Assembly: GCA_035474135.1 (NCBI GenBank)
Contig: DATINP010000033.1
Location: 2,334 to 66,333 of the forward strand
From: Chloroflexia bacterium
Lineage (GTDB): Bacteria > Chloroflexota > Chloroflexia > QHBQ01 > JADMIH01
Reading direction: 5' to 3'
Length of the DNA stretch: 64,000 nt
Below the pieces are notes generated by a model. It was not told the DNA's origin. It did not search any database and saw nothing but the letters and a program-made list of their open reading frames with translations. Numbering within the stretch: position 1 is the stretch's first letter; every line of letters starts with the position of its first letter. This document shows, one piece after another, positions 23,855-53,004 of this stretch. The translations under genes were made by a program, and so were the position numbers.

Positions 23855-23923
23855 GAACGACGACGGACGGCGGACGGCGGACGACGTACCACTCAGTCGT
23901 CTGTCGTCTGTCGTCCGTCGTCC
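23855..23923. repeat. intercistronic tandem-oligomer element D: (GACGACG/GACGGCG)x4 then (CAGTCGT/CTGTCGT/CCGTCGT)x5, an imperfect hairpin
   Basis: read directly; lies between the UPF0104-gene stop (23931) and the GT4 start (23851). Confidence 0.8.
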
Positions 23924-23930
23924 TTTCTCA

Positions 23931-32092: not shown

Positions 32093-32122
32093 CTTGACAG
32101 TACTACACTCAATCCTTATAAT
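32093..32122 (+). promoter_or_regulatory. dnaJ-hspR promoter (TTGACA, 16 nt spacer, TATAAT) overlapped by a HAIR-like inverted repeat CTTGACA-N7-ACTCAAT
   Basis: exact -35 and -10 hexamers at 32095-32100 and 32117-32122; inverted repeat at 32093-32113 matches the HspR operator consensus CTTGAGT-N7-ACTCAAG at 11 of 14 positions. Confidence 0.45.
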
Positions 32123-32208: not shown

Positions 32209-33267
32209 ATGCAATATAAAGACTATTACAATACGCTGGGCATCAAGAAAGGCGCTTCCGAAAAAGAGATCAAGTCGGCATATCGTAAGCTGGCTCGCAA
32301 GTTCCACCCTGACCTGAACCCCAACGACCGCGAGGCCGAGGCCAAGTTCAAGGAGGTAAACGAGGCCTACGAGGTGCTGGTTGATCCCGAAAAGCGCAAG
32401 AAGTACGACGAGTTCGGCTCCGAATGGGAGAGCTACCAGCATACCCAGGGTACGCCGGGCGGGTTCGACTTCTCGCAGTATTCCCAGTCCTACGGCAACG
32501 GAGGGGCGGGTGGCGTTCGTTACACCACTACGGGAGGCGAAGGCGCCGAGGACTTCTCCGACTTCTTCGAGATGCTCTTTGGCCGAGGCTCACGCGCAGC
32601 AGGCGCTAGTCCCTACTATTCGGGCGGGCGCGCTCGTACAATACCCCGCGTGGGCGAAGACTATGAGCATCGCCTGGACGTCACCCTTGAAGAAGCCTTC
32701 ACGGGCACACAGCGTGTGCTACAGATGGACGTGCCGGAAGGATGCCCCACCTGTAACGGCACGGGCGTGGTTGGCAACAAAGTGTGTCCTACCTGTAACG
32801 GCACGGGCACTGTATCGCGAACCAAGCGCCTGGAGGTCAAGATTCCGGCGGGTGTACACACAGGGTCACGAGTGCGAGTCAGCGGCGAAGGCGGCTCAGG
32901 GTCGGGCGGGGGCGGACGTGGCGATCTCTATTTGAAGGTCAGCGTTCTGCCCAATGCGCGCTTCGAGCGCAAAGGCGACGACCTGTACACGAATGTCCAG
33001 ACCCCCGCCTACACAGCCATACTTGGAGGCGAGGTAGAAGTACCCACTCCTAAAGGCACGAGACTTGCTCTGAAAATACCGTCAGGCACGCAGAACGGAC
33101 GCACCTTCAAGCTTACCGGCCAGGGGATGCCCAACCTGAAGCAGCAAGGCAAAAGAGGCGACCTTTACGCTCGCATCGAAGTACAGCTTCCTACCCAGTT
33201 GGACGAGCGTGAAAAGCAACTTTATGAGGAGCTGCAACGTATATATAATGAGCGAGTGGGAGGTTAA
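32209..33267 (+). CDS. dnaJ: DnaJ-family chaperone (J-domain, G/F region, a single CxxCxGxG pair, C-terminal substrate domain)
   Basis: J-domain with HPD (KFHPDLNP), Gly-rich region, CPTCNGTG and CPTCNGTG only (two of the usual four zinc motifs). Confidence 0.85.
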
Positions 33268-33269
33268 GT

Positions 33270-33713
33270 ATGAGTACTGAAACCAACCATGGACTCGAAA
33301 AGAGGGTAGGGCCAAAGCAGGAGGAAACACGCAAGGACCGCTCCCACGCCACATCTGAAGCGCGAAAACGGCAGAATGCCACTGTCAATGCCGAAGGGCA
33401 TCCCCGCTACGTGATCAGTATAGCGGCCCAAATCCTGGGAGTACATCCACAAACGCTCAGGCTGTACGAGCGCGAAGGGCTTGTCGAACCGCAACGAAGC
33501 GGTGGCAAAATCCGCCTTTACTCCGAGCGCGACATCGAGCGGGTACGTTCGATAATGCGGCTCACCAACGATCTAGGGGTCAACCTTGCGGGCGCAGACG
33601 CCATCCTTTATATGAGAGAGCGAATGCTCAGGCTCTATGAGGAAATGGATCGCATGCGCGAAGACCTTCTGTCCGAGTTGGAAGAGTTACGCCGCGAACT
33701 CGATGTTGAATAG
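33270..33713 (+). CDS. hspR: MerR-family heat-shock transcriptional repressor HspR
   Basis: MerR-type HTH (YVISIAAQILGVHPQTLRLYEREGLVEPQRSGGKIRLYSERDIERV); 2 nt after the dnaJ stop with GGAGG RBS; clpB downstream, as in actinobacterial HspR regulons. Confidence 0.65.
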   Translation: MSTETNHGLEKRVGPKQEETRKDRSHATSEARKRQNATVNAEGHPRYVISIAAQILGVHPQTLRLYEREGLVEPQRSGGKIRLYSERDIERVRSIMRLTNDLGVNLAGADAILYMRERMLRLYEEMDRMREDLLSELEELRRELDVE

Positions 33714-34025: not shown

Positions 34026-36479
<2,454 letters not shown>

Positions 36480-36480
36480 C

Positions 36481-36554
36481 ATAGCGCAACTCGGCTAAGA
36501 AGTAAGGTGTAGTCAGTTGCGACTACACCTTACTTCTTAGCCGAGTTGCGCTAT
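36481..36554. repeat. perfect palindrome: two 34-bp arms separated by a 6-nt loop (AGTTGC), immediately after the clpB stop
   Basis: ATAGCGCAACTCGGCTAAGAAGTAAGGTGTAGTC ... GACTACACCTTACTTCTTAGCCGAGTTGCGCTAT; reverse-complement checked by hand. Confidence 0.9.
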
Positions 36555-36715
36555 AGGGGTTGACAAATAGGGCATAAGCTGGTAAATAATAACTTAAAAC
36601 AAGTCTGCCGAATCTAACGATGGCTTTCGGTTGTCGATCATTAGCTTCATGCATTCTCTATGAGCAGATTGTTTGGAACTTAGAGAGGATCAGTTTGCTG
36701 GGAAGGAGCTTCGTG

Positions 36716-38046
36716 ATGGGAAAACTAATGCAAACAGGCGGGCTGCTAGCCATGATGGTAATTATGCTCAGTATCAATATCTCCTCTGTGCGGGCTTCTC
36801 AAGCTATCAATAAGCACGAAGTGCCATTGTCACTATGTTCAGGCTTCAGTGATGTGCAGGATACCGACTTTTTCTGCCATTTTCTGACAGTTATGGTAAA
36901 CAATGGAGATATCACCGGTTATCCAGATGGAACGTTTCGCCCTATAACGGGGTCACTAGAGGTGAGTTCTCCAAAATACTGATTGAGGGATTCGATCTCT
37001 GTTGCAACACCAGTGGAGGGCCACATTTCGCTGATGTTCCAGTGGGATCCACTTTCTATAATTGGATAGAGACAGCCTACAACAGGGGAGTCATCACCGG
37101 TTACAGTGACATGGGACATTGTGGTACACAGATACCATGTTTTTTGCCAGGTGCCAACCTTACACGCCAGCAAATGGCTAAGATGATCGCTATAACTGCT
37201 GGCTTTGGTGAATCCACAACGGGTAGGCCAGCCAGTTACTATGATATGACTAGCGGAAACACCTTCTTTTCTTATGTTGAGAACCTGGTAATGCACGCTG
37301 TGGCAAATCCGTTTGCTGCTTCCAATCCTCCCTACTGCCCATCATCCACCCAACCCTGTTTCTATCCTGGTGAAAATGCAACTCGCGCCGATATAGTAGC
37401 AAATGTTATGAACGCTCACCTGTCTAACGGCTACGGTCAGGTATTCGCAGCGAAAAGTGGAACATACACTGGTGTATCGGTTTATATTACAACTCCTGAT
37501 AATCCGGTCTCTGGTGTGCAGTTTATTGATGCACCTGTTGGTATGACCACCAAGACTAACGGGAAATTTATAGAATCAGGTCCAACAAAGGACTGCATTC
37601 CAAACTGCGGGAGTGGTTACTTATACCTGCATCCTTATGGGAGTTGGGGCAATTGGTATAGCGGTGGTCAGGATATCCTTAGAACTGTCTATCTCGCTTC
37701 AGGGGGTAGGTACGGATACAAGACAATCTATTTTGGCGGATCGGGTGGGCAGTGGCAGTCACAATATTGTGATGCGACTGGCTGCCGGGGAATTGTTTCA
37801 TCAGGCGACCTTGGAACAACCCTTCCGTATGTAGCAACAGGCGTCGAAGCCAACGCTAGAAACGTAAGCGTTGGACCGGTAACCTCATCCTATGCACAGT
37901 ACTTTTTGAACGGATCATGGTTCTACTGGTGCTATGACCCAACATTGCCACCCTGGAAGACAGCGTACCCTCCTAGCGGAATCAAGGGTAGTATTGGTTC
38001 ATGTAGCACTTATGACTATAGTTGGACAATTACCAACACTCCTTAG
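36716..38046 (+). pseudogene. secreted SLH-domain (three SLH-like repeats) protein, reading frame broken by a +1 shift at a G4 run (36949-36952)
   Basis: signal peptide MGKLMQTGGLLAMMVIMLSINISSVRASQA; SLH repeat 1 ...GDITGYPDGTFRP in frame 2 ends at 36982, and its expected continuation VTRGEFSKIL is read in frame 1 and merges into ORF 37042-38046 (SLH repeats 2-3 plus a Cys/Gly/Tyr-rich C-terminal domain). Confidence 0.55.
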
Positions 38047-38055
38047 GAGAAAACC

Positions 38056-38787
38056 ATGAGAACACACGGGAATTCCCATCAGTGGCGTAAATGGACCGCA
38101 ATTTTGATTGTTGGTGGCCTAACAATTAGCATGGCTCTCATCTATCTGTCCCTTACCTCGACTAAAGGCGGCAATCTTTCCGCTATTATGCCTGACACAC
38201 AAGGAGCCAATTTCCATTATGGTACCGAGAGTCTAGTTGGAGCTTCTCCAGATGAGGTAGGGCAGTATGCTTTAGAGTATGTACAACACCACCTTGAAGT
38301 AAGCGGTGAGCCTCAGGTTGTGCTTGCACGGTTTATCACGCAAGCAGAACGACCTTCGCTTGGGCTCGGCTGCCCACAAGCGAAGTTGACAATAGAAGAT
38401 CCACCAGAGATTCTAGTCATTCTTAGTGGCGACTTCGATGTAAGCAAAGCGATCAGCGGGTTGGCAACCAAACCACCTTGGCACTTCAAGTACGTAGCGT
38501 ACATCTTTGATCTGTGGTCTGCAAGTCATACAACATTTATTTACTCCCGGAATGGCGCCCAATTCAGGACTGCTCTAAACGATCCGACTATCCCATCAGA
38601 TGGCCCTAATGCAGAAGCTTCTCCTATCTGCCCCACGCCACTGCCAGATCAGGTTCTACTGCATTATGGGGATATTGCTCCCACAATTCAGATTCCTGAA
38701 GGACCGGCTGTGGGAAGTCCGACACCAGTATCTCCAATACCATCAGAGATCGTTCCCCCTCCATTACCTACATACGGATCAAAATAA
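38056..38787 (+). CDS. hypothetical membrane-anchored protein (islet gene)
   Basis: 243 aa; N-terminal TM (WTAILIVGGLTISMALIYLSL), Pro-rich C-terminus; lower GC than surroundings. Confidence 0.4.
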   Translation: MRTHGNSHQWRKWTAILIVGGLTISMALIYLSLTSTKGGNLSAIMPDTQGANFHYGTESLVGASPDEVGQYALEYVQHHLEVSGEPQVVLARFITQAERPSLGLGCPQAKLTIEDPPEILVILSGDFDVSKAISGLATKPPWHFKYVAYIFDLWSASHTTFIYSRNGAQFRTALNDPTIPSDGPNAEASPICPTPLPDQVLLHYGDIAPTIQIPEGPAVGSPTPVSPIPSEIVPPPLPTYGSK

Positions 38788-38951
38788 ATCCTAAAACGAC
38801 AGGACACAGTATAGCGCGCCCATCGTTGAATAATGAGCAATGTGACCAAGCCTTAGCAGGGCTACTGTGGCTATATTCTTCGAACTCTTGCCTGCTGCAC
38901 CCACTACAACGTATCAAGCGTGGGGCCGTTCACCACGATGCACTCAGATTT

Positions 38952-39046
38952 AGCAAGCGTCTGCTGAAAGGCAACGTGAAGACGGGCGACACGATCACCG
39001 CAGGCTATACTCCCGAAGAAGGCACAACCTTCGCCGTAGAGAAGAC
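38952..39046 (+). repeat. 95-bp duplicate of the clpB 3' coding end (direct repeat of 36360-36454, 94/95 identical)
   Basis: hand alignment of the two sequences; creates the chimeric ORF 38826-39077 ending ...KRLLKGNVKTGDTITAGYTPEEGTTFAVEKT. Confidence 0.9.
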
Positions 39047-39322
39047 CGAGACGGAAGAAGTCAGCATCAAAGCCTAAACTCTAACAATCACAAATACGAA
39101 AGAAGCCCTCGCCAAATAGCGGGGGCTTTCTTCATGCCATTTTAGGGGCGAAGTCATTCCACCTTCAGGTCACGGCACATTACGGCTCAGCCAATGATGC
39201 TAGCTCCATAATAGACCAGTACACGATCAACACTACGAAGATAAGCGCGAGCAGGCAACCAAGAATGGGTTGGACTTTATTCTTCATTCTACATACTTCC
39301 ACAACGGGCGGCGGTTAGCGGT

Positions 39323-40804
39323 TCATAGGTCCACGCCGTTGACTGCTTTGTACAACTCGTGCTGCCTCTCAAGGCCACGCCTGTAGACCTCATACCGCGC
39401 CATGTCGGGCCGGAACGTTTCGCCGAACGTCGTGGGTACCTCCGAATACTCAGCGATATGACCAAGACCCCGCAAAGCCAGTATCGCCGCACCCTTCGAA
39501 CTTGCCTGTTCCTCGCCTGACATGGTCACAGGGCGGCCCAGCACATCCGCCAGCATCTGCACCCAACCTGGAGTACCAAGCAGAGCGCCGCCACTCGCCA
39601 CGATGTGCTCAGGCTCAGGCAGCGCACGGCGCATCAGGTCGTACACGGACGCGAGCCTGTAGGCAATTGCCTCCTGTGCGGCCCGCAAGATCTCGACCGG
39701 GCGGGTAGCAGACGAAATGCCCGCGATGGTCATGCGCGCCGATGGGTTCCAACCCGGACTGCGCTCGCCGGCGATAAAGGGTAGCATCGTCAGGCCATGG
39801 GCATCGGGCGGCAGGCTGGCAGCGGCAACCTCCAATGCCTCGAAGTCCGTCACCCTGAGCGTATCGCGCAGCCACGCGAACACATTTCCGCCCTCCGACA
39901 ACGCCCCTCCCACAAGGGCAGTCGCGCTATCCTGCCTGTAGCACCAAAGGCCCGGCGGCACGCTACTTATCTCCGTAGGCACGAGCGCACGTATCGCCGC
40001 GCTGGTGCCGACCTGCACTGCCCACTCTCCCGGCGAATAACAACCACTGCCCAGATTGCTCGTCAGGCCGTCGCCCACACACGGAAACCAAATCGCGTCC
40101 TTCAATGCAGGCCACCGCGCCGCGAACTGCGGGCGAAGTCGGGCGAAGCCGCTGCCAGCATCCACGAGCGGGGGAAGGTGTAGACGGTCAACCCCAATAA
40201 GCGCAAGCAGCCAATCATCCCAGTCAGCGGTGTGCCGGTTGAGCAGCCCCGACCATGATGCGACCGAGGTGCTTTGCGCGTACCTGCCGAACAAGCGGGC
40301 GTAAATGAAGTCGCCCAGTGTAACCCACAGCGCCGTACGCTCCCATACCGCGGGCATCGTTTCGCGCACCCATACGAGGCGCGCAGGCAGATACGCAGTA
40401 TGCAGGGAACAGCCGGTGCGCTCGTAAATCTCACCCGCGCCCGGCACACGTTTGAGCGCCTCCGCCTGGGCGGCACAGCGTGTATCGGCCCAGGTATAGA
40501 CAGGAGTAGTGGCGCGCCCCAACGCGTCCACACCGAGCACGTTCGACACCAGGGAGCAAAAGCCTACGCCCGCAATGGAGACGGACTTCGCTCCAGCACT
40601 GGCAAGGGTGCGGTCTATCGCGGAAAAGAGGGCATCACAAAGAGCATCCGGGTCGAGATCGGCCCCGCCGTCCGGTGTCGAGCGCATTTCGTACTTCGCC
40701 TGTGTTTCATACTCGGCAAGCCGCCGCGCCCCACCGGCAAACAAGTTCACGCGCAGGGAAGACGACCCGATGTCAATTGTCAGCAGGGGTGAATCGTAGA
40801 CCAT
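39323..40804 (-). CDS. FGGY-family carbohydrate kinase (gluconokinase/xylulokinase-like)
   Basis: N-terminal LTIDIGSSSLRV phosphate-1 motif and C-terminal ASGGALLGTPGWVQMLADVLGRPV block typical of FGGY kinases. Confidence 0.8.
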   Translation of the reverse strand: MVYDSPLLTIDIGSSSLRVNLFAGGARRLAEYETQAKYEMRSTPDGGADLDPDALCDALFSAIDRTLASAGAKSVSIAGVGFCSLVSNVLGVDALGRATTPVYTWADTRCAAQAEALKRVPGAGEIYERTGCSLHTAYLPARLVWVRETMPAVWERTALWVTLGDFIYARLFGRYAQSTSVASWSGLLNRHTADWDDWLLALIGVDRLHLPPLVDAGSGFARLRPQFAARWPALKDAIWFPCVGDGLTSNLGSGCYSPGEWAVQVGTSAAIRALVPTEISSVPPGLWCYRQDSATALVGGALSEGGNVFAWLRDTLRVTDFEALEVAAASLPPDAHGLTMLPFIAGERSPGWNPSARMTIAGISSATRPVEILRAAQEAIAYRLASVYDLMRRALPEPEHIVASGGALLGTPGWVQMLADVLGRPVTMSGEEQASSKGAAILALRGLGHIAEYSEVPTTFGETFRPDMARYEVYRRGLERQHELYKAVNGVDL

Positions 40805-40883
40805 AGATCATGGATCCTGAGCCAACTTCGGATGACCGACAACCGGCGCGGTATGTTATCTGCGAGCCTTCAACCGTCAGCTA

Positions 40884-50732: not shown

Positions 50733-50850
50733 TCTCAATTCTCAATTCTCAATTTTGAATTCTTAATTAAGCCGTGCCATCCGGTTTGCGTAACCTGGTC
50801 GGACTGCCACATCTTCATTAATTAAGAATTCAAAATTGAGAATTGAGAAT
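50733..50850. repeat. AT-rich pair of 33-bp inverted repeats flanking a 47-bp GC-rich core (MITE-like or large RNA hairpin) in the infB-rbfA spacer
   Basis: ATTCTCAATTCTCAATTTTGAATTCTTAATTAA ... TTAATTAAGAATTCAAAATTGAGAATTGAGAAT; the left arm contains (AATTCTC)x3. Confidence 0.85.
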
Positions 50851-53004
50851 TTATTTTACGGCTATTTGCTCTTTCCTGTAGAACTCCAGGGTATCGCCTT
50901 CCTCGAAGTCGTTGAAGTTGGTCAGCGAGATGCCGCACTCGTAGCCCTGAGCCACGTCGCGTACATCGTCCTTGAACCTCTTGAGGGCCGAGACCGTGCC
51001 ATCATAGATGACAGCGCCGTTCCTCAGTAAGCGTACCTGTGCGTTGCGCGTGGCCTTGCCTTCAGTTACGATCAAGCCAGCGGCCTGCTCGTTCTTCGGG
51101 AGGCGGAAGACCGCACGCACTTCGGCGTAGCCGTCGGTTACGTCGTGGAATGTCGGCTCAAGCAGACCCTTCATTGCCAGCTCGATGTCCTCCGACAACT
51201 TATAGATGATATCGTAGAACCTGATTTCGATGCGGTTCTTGTCGGCTGCCCGCTTCGCGGCGGCATCAGGCCGTACGTTGAACCCAACGATAATCGCGCT
51301 TGAAGCGACGGCCAGCGCCACGTCCGACTCGGTGATCCCGCCCGTTCCACGGTGCAGGATTGACACCTTCACGTCCTCGTTGGTCAGCTTCTGTAAGGTC
51401 TGCGTAATCGCTTCCAGCGAACCTTGCACGTCGGCTTTGAGGATAAGGCGTAATTCTTTTACCTTGCCGGCCTGTATCTGGGCGAACAGGTCGTCCAGGT
51501 TCACGGACTTGATGCTCTGGGCTGCTTCCTCGAACCGGCGAATACGCGCCCTCTGATCAGCGATCTCTTTCGCTGTAGTTTCGTCGGGCGCTACTACTAG
51601 CGTATCACCCGCCTGGGGCACACCCGATAGGCCAAGTATTTCTGCCGGGGTCGATGGTTCTGCTTTACGCAGCTTGCGACCCTTGTCGTCTTGCATAGCC
51701 CTTACACGGCCCCAGGTCGCCCCTGCCACGACATAATCGCGCAGATTGAGCGTGCCGTTGCCGATAAGCACGGTAGCAATTGGACCACGGTTTCTGTCCA
51801 TCTCGGCTTCGACTATAGTGCCTGTGGCGCGCCTCTGTGGGCTGGACTGCAGGTCGCCCAGTTCTGCCACCAGCAGGATCGTCTCCAACAGGTCCTGTAT
51901 GCCGGTGCCTGCGCGGGCCGATACCTTGATATACTCGGTATCGCCTCCCCACTGGGTCGGCACAAGGCCCTGATCCGAAAGCTGGGTCATTACACGGTCA
52001 GGGTTGGCTTCCTCGCGATCCATCTTGTTGATAGCAACCACGATAGGCACGTTGGCAGCCTGTGCATGGGCCAATGCCTCCAGTGTCTGGGGCATAACTC
52101 CGTCGTCTGCCGCCACCACCAGCACAACGATGTCCGTGATCTGGGCGCCGCGGGCGCGCATGGCTGTAAAGGCTTCGTGGCCCGGTGTGTCCAGGAACGT
52201 GATCTTCTTGCCCTGCAACTCGACCTGGTATGCACCGATGTGCTGGGTGATGCCACCTGCCTCGGTGGCGATCACGTTAGCTGAGCGGATGGTATCGAGC
52301 AGTTTGGTCTTGCCGTGGTCTACATGGCCCATGATAGTAACCACGGGCGGACGCAATGATTGCCTGCTTGTATCTGCCGCTTCCTGTTCGGCGGTCAGCA
52401 ATTCTCCCAGGTCTTCTTCTACTTCCAGTTTGGCTTCGGTTACTTCGTAACCCATGCCGATAGCAGCTATTGCAGCCGTTTCATAGTCAATTTGCTGGTT
52501 GATCGTGGCGAGTACCCCGTGCTTGATCATTTCGGCGATCACTTTTGTGGGGTTCACGTTCATCAGTTCGCCAAGCTCTTTGACGGTTAAATAGGGCGGA
52601 ATAGCTACTTTGGGCGTAGGGCGTTCCACACCCAGGCCAAGCCCGCGTGCGGCCCCGAAGCCACGAGTAGAGGCTGCCGCGCCGCCACCGCCACCTCGGA
52701 AGCCGCCTCTGCCGCCCCCGAAGCGATTGCTGCCGCCGTTTTGCCCACCGAATCCGGGTCGAGCCCCACCGCCGCCTGGGCCGGTCCTGTTAAAGCCGCC
52801 TGGGCGGGCTGCACCGCCCCTCGCCGGGGGTCGTCCCCCGCTAGGGCGTCCGGGTGCTCCCGGGCCACCGCCCGGCCTGCCACGTCCCGGTGTGCGCGGT
52901 GTGCGCCCAGGACCACTCGCTTCTTCTTCCGGCGTATCATCGCCTGCACCTGCATCACGTCCGCTAGTGGGCGCAACAACTACGTAATCTATTTTCTTTG
53001 GCAT
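50851..53004 (-). CDS. infB: translation initiation factor IF-2 with Gly/Arg/Pro-rich N-terminal region
   Basis: G-domain motifs [19 protein letters not shown](R/K); C-terminal beta-barrel domains; 717 aa. Confidence 0.95.

Follow-up and report, generated by a model that had tools for sequence, protein, structure and literature searches.

A 34-bp perfect hairpin behind a clp gene of a Chloroflexia bacterium: a candidate 3'-end RNA structure at the left end of an insertion

The hairpins catalogued as bacterial transcription terminators typically have stems of 7-14 bp and folding energies of about -15 to -25 kcal/mol (median about -18 kcal/mol), and tail-less, I-shaped terminators form a large class among them that becomes commoner with rising genomic GC (PMC3013805). 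As defined in WebGeSTer, an I-shaped terminator is a stable hairpin at most 50 nt from a stop codon with no more than 3 U in its 10-nt trail (PMC3013805). An unusually long stem also ends a transcription unit in TerR of the Bacillus plasmid pLS20, which insulates the genes downstream; against typical stems of 7-9 bp its 15-bp stem counts as extraordinary, and a longer stem is harder to override (PMC10325885). Here we describe a perfect palindrome of 74 bases that lies directly behind a clp gene in a 64,000-nt stretch of DNA from a Chloroflexia bacterium (the window; assembly GCA_035474135.1, contig DATINP010000033.1, positions 2,334 to 66,333). The gene and the parts of the palindrome are as follows.

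34026-36479, plus strand: ClpB/ClpC-type Hsp100 AAA+ ATPase gene, 817 amino acids, two-module (Pfam, NCBIfam)
36481-36514, plus strand: palindrome arm 1, 34 nt
36515-36520, plus strand: hairpin loop AGTTGC, 6 nt, not self-complementary
36521-36554, plus strand: palindrome arm 2, in which the U-rich UUACUUCUU immediately follows the top 9 bp

The two arms pair at 34 of 34 positions (100% complementary), and the bases that flank them, C36480 and A36555, are unpaired, so that the stem is exactly 34 bp long. Because the clp stop codon TAA occupies 36477-36479, C36480 is the single base between stop and stem. A preliminary description of this DNA had reported 34-bp perfect arms around a 6-nt loop, abutting the clp stop; we verified its coordinates and pairing, and the abutment holds to within that one nucleotide. 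The hairpin folds at -65 kcal/mol as RNA (z = -15.2) and at -41.9 kcal/mol as DNA (z = -14.8). With up to three mismatches allowed, the only matches to the arm in the 64 kb are the arm and its partner, against an expectation of 0 from 100 shuffles, and a palindrome by chance is excluded.

Measured against the described terminators, the stem is far beyond ordinary length, as the preliminary description had said (34 bp against a typical 7-14 bp, PMC3013805). Its further remark that there is no trailing U-tract is right for the 10-nt trail after the full stem, AGGGGUUGAC, which has 2 U, but overlooks the U-rich UUACUUCUU within the 3' arm. The stem is laid out as a 9-bp top, then UUACUUCUU paired with an A-rich run, then 15 more bp. 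A canonical (L-shaped) Rho-independent terminator has a short GC-rich stem of about 5-14 bp, a loop of 3-8 nt and over 3 U in the 10-nt trail. Proximity to the stop and the 6-nt loop fit this description, whereas the 34-bp stem of 47% GC and the 2-U trail do not. The hairpin does fall within the WebGeSTer definition of an I-shaped terminator, with polymerase release being a prediction, although the stems in that collection are of 7-14 bp and this one has 34 bp, -65 kcal/mol and 47% GC (PMC3013805). TerR likewise differs in having a U-tract and in having been tested against a defined antitermination system, whereas the clp hairpin has no known antiterminator, and the present stem is more than twice as long (PMC10325885). 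A terminator scan of the sequence left the hairpin unflagged, and it has no match in Rfam at the gathering threshold; a permissive local Rfam search returned only generic miRNA-precursor hairpins below threshold, which reached 45 bits at most where the gathering score is 59.

Other 3' stem-loops act on the message itself. The repetitive extragenic palindromic (REP) elements and bacterial interspersed mosaic elements (BIMEs) of enterobacteria, like the 3' inverted repeats of chloroplasts, stabilize upstream mRNA and can block 3'-5' exonucleases without efficient termination. REP elements are multi-copy and have imperfect stems, in contrast to the clp hairpin, which is single-copy in our searches, perfect and far longer. 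The sib site of phage lambda, downstream of int, is a 3' hairpin whose gene linkage changes on integration and whose double-stranded RNA (dsRNA) is a target of RNase III. The clp hairpin resembles it in being a 3' structure tied to an integration event, but there is no phage or int gene here, and the linkage is created, not broken, by the insertion.

That insertion became apparent when tblastx revealed a second copy of the last conserved clp coding stretch. Alignment showed the two copies to be identical at 94 of 95 positions and to have sharp edges. Between them lies the inserted DNA proper (36455-38951, about 2.5 kb, low in GC), which carries a two-gene cassette for a protein with an SLH domain and its partner; the inserted unit as a whole measures 2,592 bp. 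Among 17 related sequences, this duplication of the clp 3' end was found in the window alone. Its landmarks are listed here.

36360-36454, plus strand: direct repeat copy 1, the last conserved clp coding stretch, 95 nt
36455-36479, plus strand: replacement clp tail A, AEVGVGA and TAA, the first bases of the insert
38788-38951, plus strand: non-coding right end of the insert ("X")
38952-39046, plus strand: direct repeat copy 2, the displaced native clp 3' fragment, with one G>A at 38973
39047-39077, plus strand: native clp tail B remnant, ETEEVSIKA and TAA, matching the P0121 tail ETEEVSVKA
39098-39133, plus strand: displaced native clp terminator, stem GAAAGAAGCCCUCGC...GCGGGGGCUUUCUUC, fold -26.8 kcal/mol

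Tail A parts abruptly from the copy at 39047, and the first 25 nt of the insert are the end of a donor clp gene. This tail is homologous to natural clp tails elsewhere in Chloroflexia, among them AEVGVKA and AEVGVQA (P0009, P0004) and PVGVGA, and it has the DNA string GCCGAGGTAGG in common with two related loci (L087 and L088). On this likeness we take tail A to be the genuine clp tail of another lineage, not random read-through, in which case the hairpin would also have followed the clp stop in the donor. The window's own species group (P0122) has tails like tail B. The terminator at 39098-39133 stands 20 nt past the tail-B stop, and both its place and its AAGAAGCC...GGCUUCUU build are as in the clp terminators of relatives.

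The preliminary description had proposed a comparison with strains lacking the low-GC islet, and a counterpart without it was found. In an unrelated JGI metagenome, a clp protein of the same 90%-identity cluster (P0121) matches window residues 1-810 bar one substitution and ends in tail B. By its gene map, the 4.6-kb contig that encodes it (JGI 3300048101) carries merR, clp, an open reading frame (ORF) of 35 amino acids and an FGGY kinase gene, with no cassette, and clp runs straight on toward FGGY. The gap from the clp stop to the FGGY stop is 245 nt, equal to the gap between the tail-B stop and FGGY in the window. Because it has the same tail B, the same 245-nt gap and no cassette, we read the P0121 arrangement as the empty site and the window as the same arrangement plus the 2,592-bp unit. 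By this comparison, the native clp tail and terminator were displaced about 2.6 kb downstream, not lost.

It is the islet, not the palindrome, that has an anatomy of the att type, with flanking 95-nt direct repeats and a clp ORF restored by tail A. The preliminary description had placed the palindrome at the left edge of the islet; it does stand at the left end of the low-GC insert, but the insert already begins 26 nt before it, at 36455, within the ORF. At 38951/38952 lies the sole clearly illegitimate joint, and the simplest origin of the insert, judged from this end-product, would be recombination through short shared clp sequence on the left with an illegitimate joint on the right. Campbell-type insertion of a circularized fragment would give the same product, with the 95 nt duplicated by either route, and an integrase acting in trans on a cis-mobilizable element would leave the same scar. 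Homology-facilitated illegitimate recombination and Campbell-type insertion share with this locus the short-homology anchor, the single illegitimate joint, the duplicated stretch and the lack of a recombinase; the difference is that here the mechanism is deduced from its end-product only. Among the ORFs between clp and FGGY, those scanned with Pfam and NCBIfam include no recombinase, transposase or protelomerase family.

Long perfect hairpins turned out to be a habit of this lineage. We counted perfect stems with loops of 3-12 nt in 240 kb, made up of the window and 16 loci from its clade, with 64 loci from other taxa for comparison. The 240 kb contain 13 perfect stems of at least 17 bp, and five of the clade loci have stems of 22-27 bp. 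The density of stems of at least 17 bp is 6.25 per 100 kb for the 16 clade loci and 0.86 per 100 kb for the 64 other-taxa loci, with 0 in shuffles, an enrichment of about 7-fold. The enriched loci and some of their hairpins are as follows.

L001-L014, L036 and L040: clade loci enriched in long perfect hairpins
L004 1150-1204: 26-bp tail-less stem between co-directional genes
L040 1361-1401: 19-bp tail-less stem that starts 1 nt past a stop codon
L006 8765-8818, L008 3698-3754 and L007 4819-4868: further examples

Every one of the long inverted repeats in the window and clade loci whose flanks were mapped (15/15) adjoins a stop codon, at distances from overlapping it to about 130 nt beyond. Many of the clade hairpins are ordinary terminators, frequently between convergent genes, in which an A-tract upstream pairs perfectly with the U-tract, and several are tail-less and lie between co-directional genes. 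One orthologous gene is followed by different hairpins in different lineages, and these structures therefore turn over quickly. The 34-bp stem is the longest seen and fits on the tail of the clade distribution, whose maximum is otherwise 27 bp: it is extreme, not exceptional. For a 74-bp palindrome with a 6-nt spacer, the earlier statement that long perfect palindromes are unstable unless maintained goes too far. The work on palindrome instability in E. coli cited here concerns palindromes of hundreds of bp (PMC4245961), the risk drops with shorter arms and with a spacer (PMC7999016), and stems of 17-27 bp are common in this clade.

The structure and position of the hairpin, the anatomy of the insertion, the empty site and the lineage's habit of long perfect 3' hairpins lead us to favor a role at the RNA level. 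We propose, with a probability of about 0.5, that the palindrome is an unusually long tail-less terminator, insulator or 3'-end-protecting hairpin of the clp transcript; of the three options raised in the preliminary description, the best supported, as a predicted role, is that of an RNA structure at the clp 3' end. Under this proposal the palindrome would not have been built at the locus. It would have come within a foreign segment of about 2.5 kb (36455-38951), recombined into the last clp codons from another Chloroflexia lineage and bringing with it the donor clp tail AEVGVGA and its stop, the hairpin, a promoter-like site and the two-gene SLH cassette. A 95-nt piece of clp would have been duplicated on insertion, and the native tail with its canonical terminator would have ended up 2.6 kb farther downstream. 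With the native terminator pushed away, the hairpin is left as the only strong structure between clp and the cassette, and since that terminator now stands behind the clp remnant, a replacement 3' structure would be needed exactly where the palindrome lies. Once RNA polymerase has passed the stop, the top 9-bp stem and the U-rich UUACUUCUU could act as a terminator-like core. On read-through, the stem would zip to its full 34 bp, block 3'-5' exonucleases and separate clp expression from that of the cassette.

In favor of this role, the stem begins 1 nt past the stop, in the position that 3' hairpins take in the clade, and in relatives, too, clp is followed at this place by a hairpin terminator. 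Several points weigh against it. The stem is just 47% GC and no U-tract follows it, whereas the canonical terminators of the clade combine a GC-rich core with a U-tract. A perfect 34-bp dsRNA is an ideal RNase III substrate and could destabilize the message. Perfect Watson-Crick pairing without a single G-U is unneeded for an RNA transcribed in one direction and could reflect a recent origin at the DNA level. The hairpin has no homologue in any of the searched collections, hence no covariation support, and both termination and stabilization are predicted from its sequence.

The perfection of the stem could also record how the DNA arose. A fold-back or template switch, at or after the insertion, may have copied about 34 nt of the donor's 3' untranslated or promoter-upstream region in inverted orientation round a 6-nt turn, leaving a young palindrome as a functionless by-product. 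Template switching is a documented route by which inverted repeats are extended or perfected (PMC7202029, PMC3820800). The arms are identical at 34/34 positions, the insertion is recent by the 94/95 identity of its direct repeat, and the short non-palindromic center is as snap-back priming predicts. Two loci with clp tails like tail A (L087 and L088, which have other neighbor genes) carry a 25-35 nt spacer followed by a canonical terminator and no such hairpin, which implies a rearrangement of the donor 3' region at some stage. Still, neither arm can be picked out as the original, there being no homologue of either in 82 loci or in public collections; a stem 1 nt past a stop, followed by a promoter-like site, is the pattern of the clade's functional 3' hairpins; and an origin of this kind is compatible with a present role as a terminator. 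A mere by-product therefore strikes us as unlikely. The preliminary description had leaned toward DNA, seeing in the palindrome a footprint or recognition site of the insertion, or a hairpin-end resolution site. A recombination site for whatever moved the 2.6-kb unit, be it an integrase in trans, a single-strand system of the HUH or Xer type or a hairpin-end resolvase, would suit a unit that looks like 3'-end gene integration (direct repeats, restored ORF, native 3' end at the far side) and a palindrome only 26 nt from the left repeat. Yet none of the unit's ORFs matches an integrase, transposase or protelomerase family. An arm copy, full or partial, is missing from the right end of the insert, and the two ends of the insert have no common motif beyond chance (75 of 300 shuffles do at least as well in shared 8-mers); no other copy turned up in the 64 kb, 82 related loci, species-representative genomes, JGI metagenomes, viral contigs, plasmids or phages. 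The center, AGTTGC, is non-self-complementary, unlike telomere-resolution sites, and the pairing is perfect, without the extrahelical bases or RYYYAAC/GTTRRRY cores of attC. Moreover, the 95-nt repeat is species-specific clp sequence, a better fit to homology-guided or illegitimate recombination than to a site-specific core. An insert bounded by a clp repeat, with no partner arm and no recombinase family, leaves the footprint or recognition site unsupported, and the non-palindromic center and the lack of a protelomerase among the scanned ORFs argue against hairpin-end resolution; a recombination site of any of these kinds is improbable. RNase III cleaves dsRNA that spans at least about two helical turns. 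The uninterrupted 34-bp Watson-Crick duplex exceeds the length of about 20 bp expected of its substrates and is a potential target, and a processing or retroregulation site here could split clp RNA from cassette RNA or lower clp mRNA relative to the empty-site allele. However, sequence cannot tell cleavage from simple termination or protection, and other long hairpins of the clade, with their paired A and U tracts, have the look of ordinary terminators; we hold little expectation that such processing is the function of the hairpin. The same low expectation applies to a wider proposal, that the palindrome is the signature of a recombinase-independent insertion of foreign DNA at the 3' end of a gene (short homology plus fold-back synthesis, with a perfect hairpin left on one side and a target duplication of about 100 nt) and that transcripts of this lineage may end in, and be insulated by, 17-34-bp perfect hairpins kept perfect by DNA-level correction, distinct from the hairpin with U-tract.

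Two further explanations would make the palindrome incidental. It could be the lone copy of a dispersed repeat family (a miniature inverted-repeat transposable element, MITE, or a REP- or ERIC-like element) that lies here by chance, which would agree with its compact palindromic form, its intergenic position and the presence at 50737-50851 of a second inverted repeat with 34-nt arms, of unrelated sequence. The preliminary description had proposed to search for the arm, with copies at many unrelated loci marking a generic repeat, and the search came out negative. The 64-kb window holds no other copy, either by pattern matching at up to 3 mismatches or by blastn at word size 7, partial copies included. 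Exact 20-22-mers of the arm are absent from species-representative genomes (596 Gb), JGI metagenomes and viral contigs, and it has no match in plasmids or phages (blastn) or in the 82 fetched loci (14-15-mers). There is also no target-site duplication around the palindrome. The copy search reaches as far as the window and these collections, which leaves room for a low-copy family, but we consider a repeat family very unlikely. The palindrome, the duplicated clp end or both could also be artefacts of metagenome assembly, by strain chimerism or a hairpin mis-join. The source is a short-read metagenome-assembled genome (MAG): the database protein identical to the clp product, P0125, carries the annotation "MAG TPA", and the contigs of relatives bear k141-style names. 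The species comprises several strains: two contigs (L083 and L084) depart from the window at a few sites, and the allele represented by P0121 has tail B. Against this, a contig made by another assembler, Logan contig L086 from run SRR9656163, reproduces window 36525-39003 with zero mismatches, taking in arm 2, the junction 38951/38952 between X and the repeat, the A at 38973 specific to the second repeat copy and a frameshift in the SLH gene. The run, from which all of L083-L086 come, may be the MAG's own source and thus not independent sampling, and the comparison is at the level of contigs that we assume to be k=31 unitigs. If k is 31, a perfect inverted repeat of at least 31 nt forces a branch in the 31-mer graph, and L086 starts at just that base. 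It ends 30 nt past the sole base that distinguishes the two 95-nt copies, and L085, coming from the opposite side, stops 30 nt into the repeat; such breaks are to be expected if the inverted repeat and the 95-nt repeat are both real. Furthermore, the arms end cleanly at 34 nt and their flanks are not mutual inverted copies, unlike those of fold-back contigs. Because a second assembler reproduces the region and breaks at the predicted bases (if k=31), an assembler-specific artefact is unlikely, and of all the explanations considered here we give assembly error the least credence.

Several other known element types were compared with the palindrome as well. An integron attC site was rejected because of the 34/34 perfect pairing, ends (GCGCAAC/GTTGCGC) that are off the cores and the absence of an intI-like ORF from the islet, and a protelomerase (hairpin-telomere) site because AGTTGC breaks the dyad and no such gene lies in or near the islet. 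For a tyrosine or serine recombinase att site, there is no recombinase family in the islet ORFs and no motif common to both ends of the insert beyond chance. The hairpin ends of IS200/IS605 or IS91-type elements, retrons and CRISPR repeats have an unfitting anatomy and no cognate genes here, and were likewise rejected. A dispersed family of the MITE or REP type is not supported for an arm that is single-copy in the 64 kb and absent from the searched collections.

Two other inverted repeats lie in the window. One is perfect, with 34-nt, very AT-rich arms at 50737-50770 and 50818-50851 (AATTCTCAATTCTCAATTTTGAATTCTTAATTAA) around a GC-rich spacer of 47 nt. The minus-strand ORF 50851-53004 ends in a stop codon that shares 1 nt with the second arm, and the next minus-strand gene follows just downstream of the repeat. 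The other (23856-23925) is GC-rich and imperfect, with 30-nt arms that are 83% complementary and short repeats of the GACG/GTCG type.

The region between the palindrome and the native right neighbor of clp contains the following features.

36560-36590, plus strand: promoter-like site read by eye, a perfect TTGACA at 36560-36565 followed by an AT-rich -10-like TAAATAAT from 36583
36713-38046, plus strand: gene for a secreted SLH-domain protein, frameshifted at a run of four G at 36949-36952 (translations, Pfam SLH)
38056-38787, plus strand: gene for a 243-amino-acid membrane-anchored protein, partner of the SLH gene, with no Pfam or NCBIfam match
39323-40804, minus strand: FGGY carbohydrate kinase gene, the native right neighbor of clp (Pfam)

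Promoter activity at 36560-36590 is a prediction from these hexamers, and a consensus promoter scan based on spacing and hexamer rules did not flag the site. The frameshift at the GGGG of the SLH gene is also present in the Logan assembly, and the gene is therefore probably a real pseudogene rather than an assembler error. A homologue in L081 (2495-3823, 442 amino acids) is intact in a single frame. Indeed, the SLH gene and its 243-amino-acid partner occur as an intact, low-GC pair at about 58-60% identity in two metagenome contigs, L081 and L082, with no palindrome there. The L081 cassette adjoins a putative nuoK-like gene, an ORF labelled by eye. Outside the window, an SLH cassette beside clp was not found; the sole related cassettes, those of L081 and L082, lie next to the nuoK-like gene.

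The clp protein itself has, by Pfam, a Clp_N domain, two AAA modules, AAA_lid_9 and ClpB_D2-small. The preliminary description had called the gene clpB, and the best NCBIfam match is indeed the ClpB equivalog, but its 1095 bits fall under the cutoff of 1232 and JGI names the relatives ClpC, so we use ClpB/ClpC-type. A protein from a Chloroflexia MAG, P0125 (NCBI HST03462.1), has the same sequence (100% identity), and the closest species-representative genomes are those of uncultured soil Chloroflexia, with 94% amino acid identity for L001 and 79-87% for others. The C-terminal tails of ClpB/ClpC proteins are hypervariable in length and sequence among close relatives.

Upstream of clp lie a dnaJ-like gene (32209-33267) and a merR/hspR-like gene (33270-33713). 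Synteny with relatives covers dnaJ, merR and clp and resumes from a URO-D-family gene. The interval between clp and URO-D is hypervariable and lower in GC, with a gene content that differs per lineage and a length of 1.3-4.4 kb.

Window 36480-40883: clp to URO-D interval
L001 8451-10532: clp to URO-D interval
L014 8449-10353: clp to URO-D interval
L003 8448-12379: clp to URO-D interval
L013 1759-3035: clp to URO-D interval
L036 8436-12672: clp to URO-D interval

No HspR operator (HAIR-type, CTTGAGT-N7-ACTCAAG) was found at the palindrome, and the two weak matches elsewhere are at chance level. One of them, at 32093-32113 with 3 mismatches and statistically at chance level, lies just upstream of the dnaJ-like gene, which is the expected place in an HspR-regulated dnaJ-hspR-clp cluster.

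Taken by itself, the hairpin is a familiar element in an extreme form, and its value lies in the context that it exposed. That context is a recent recombination of foreign DNA into the last codons of a conserved chaperone gene, for which the empty site is known and in which the protein tail and the terminator were both swapped. The insertion shows 3' regulatory structures travelling with horizontally acquired DNA. Should the tail-less giants of this lineage prove to be working terminators, models trained on the terminators of E. coli and Bacillus would have to be adapted to the phylum.

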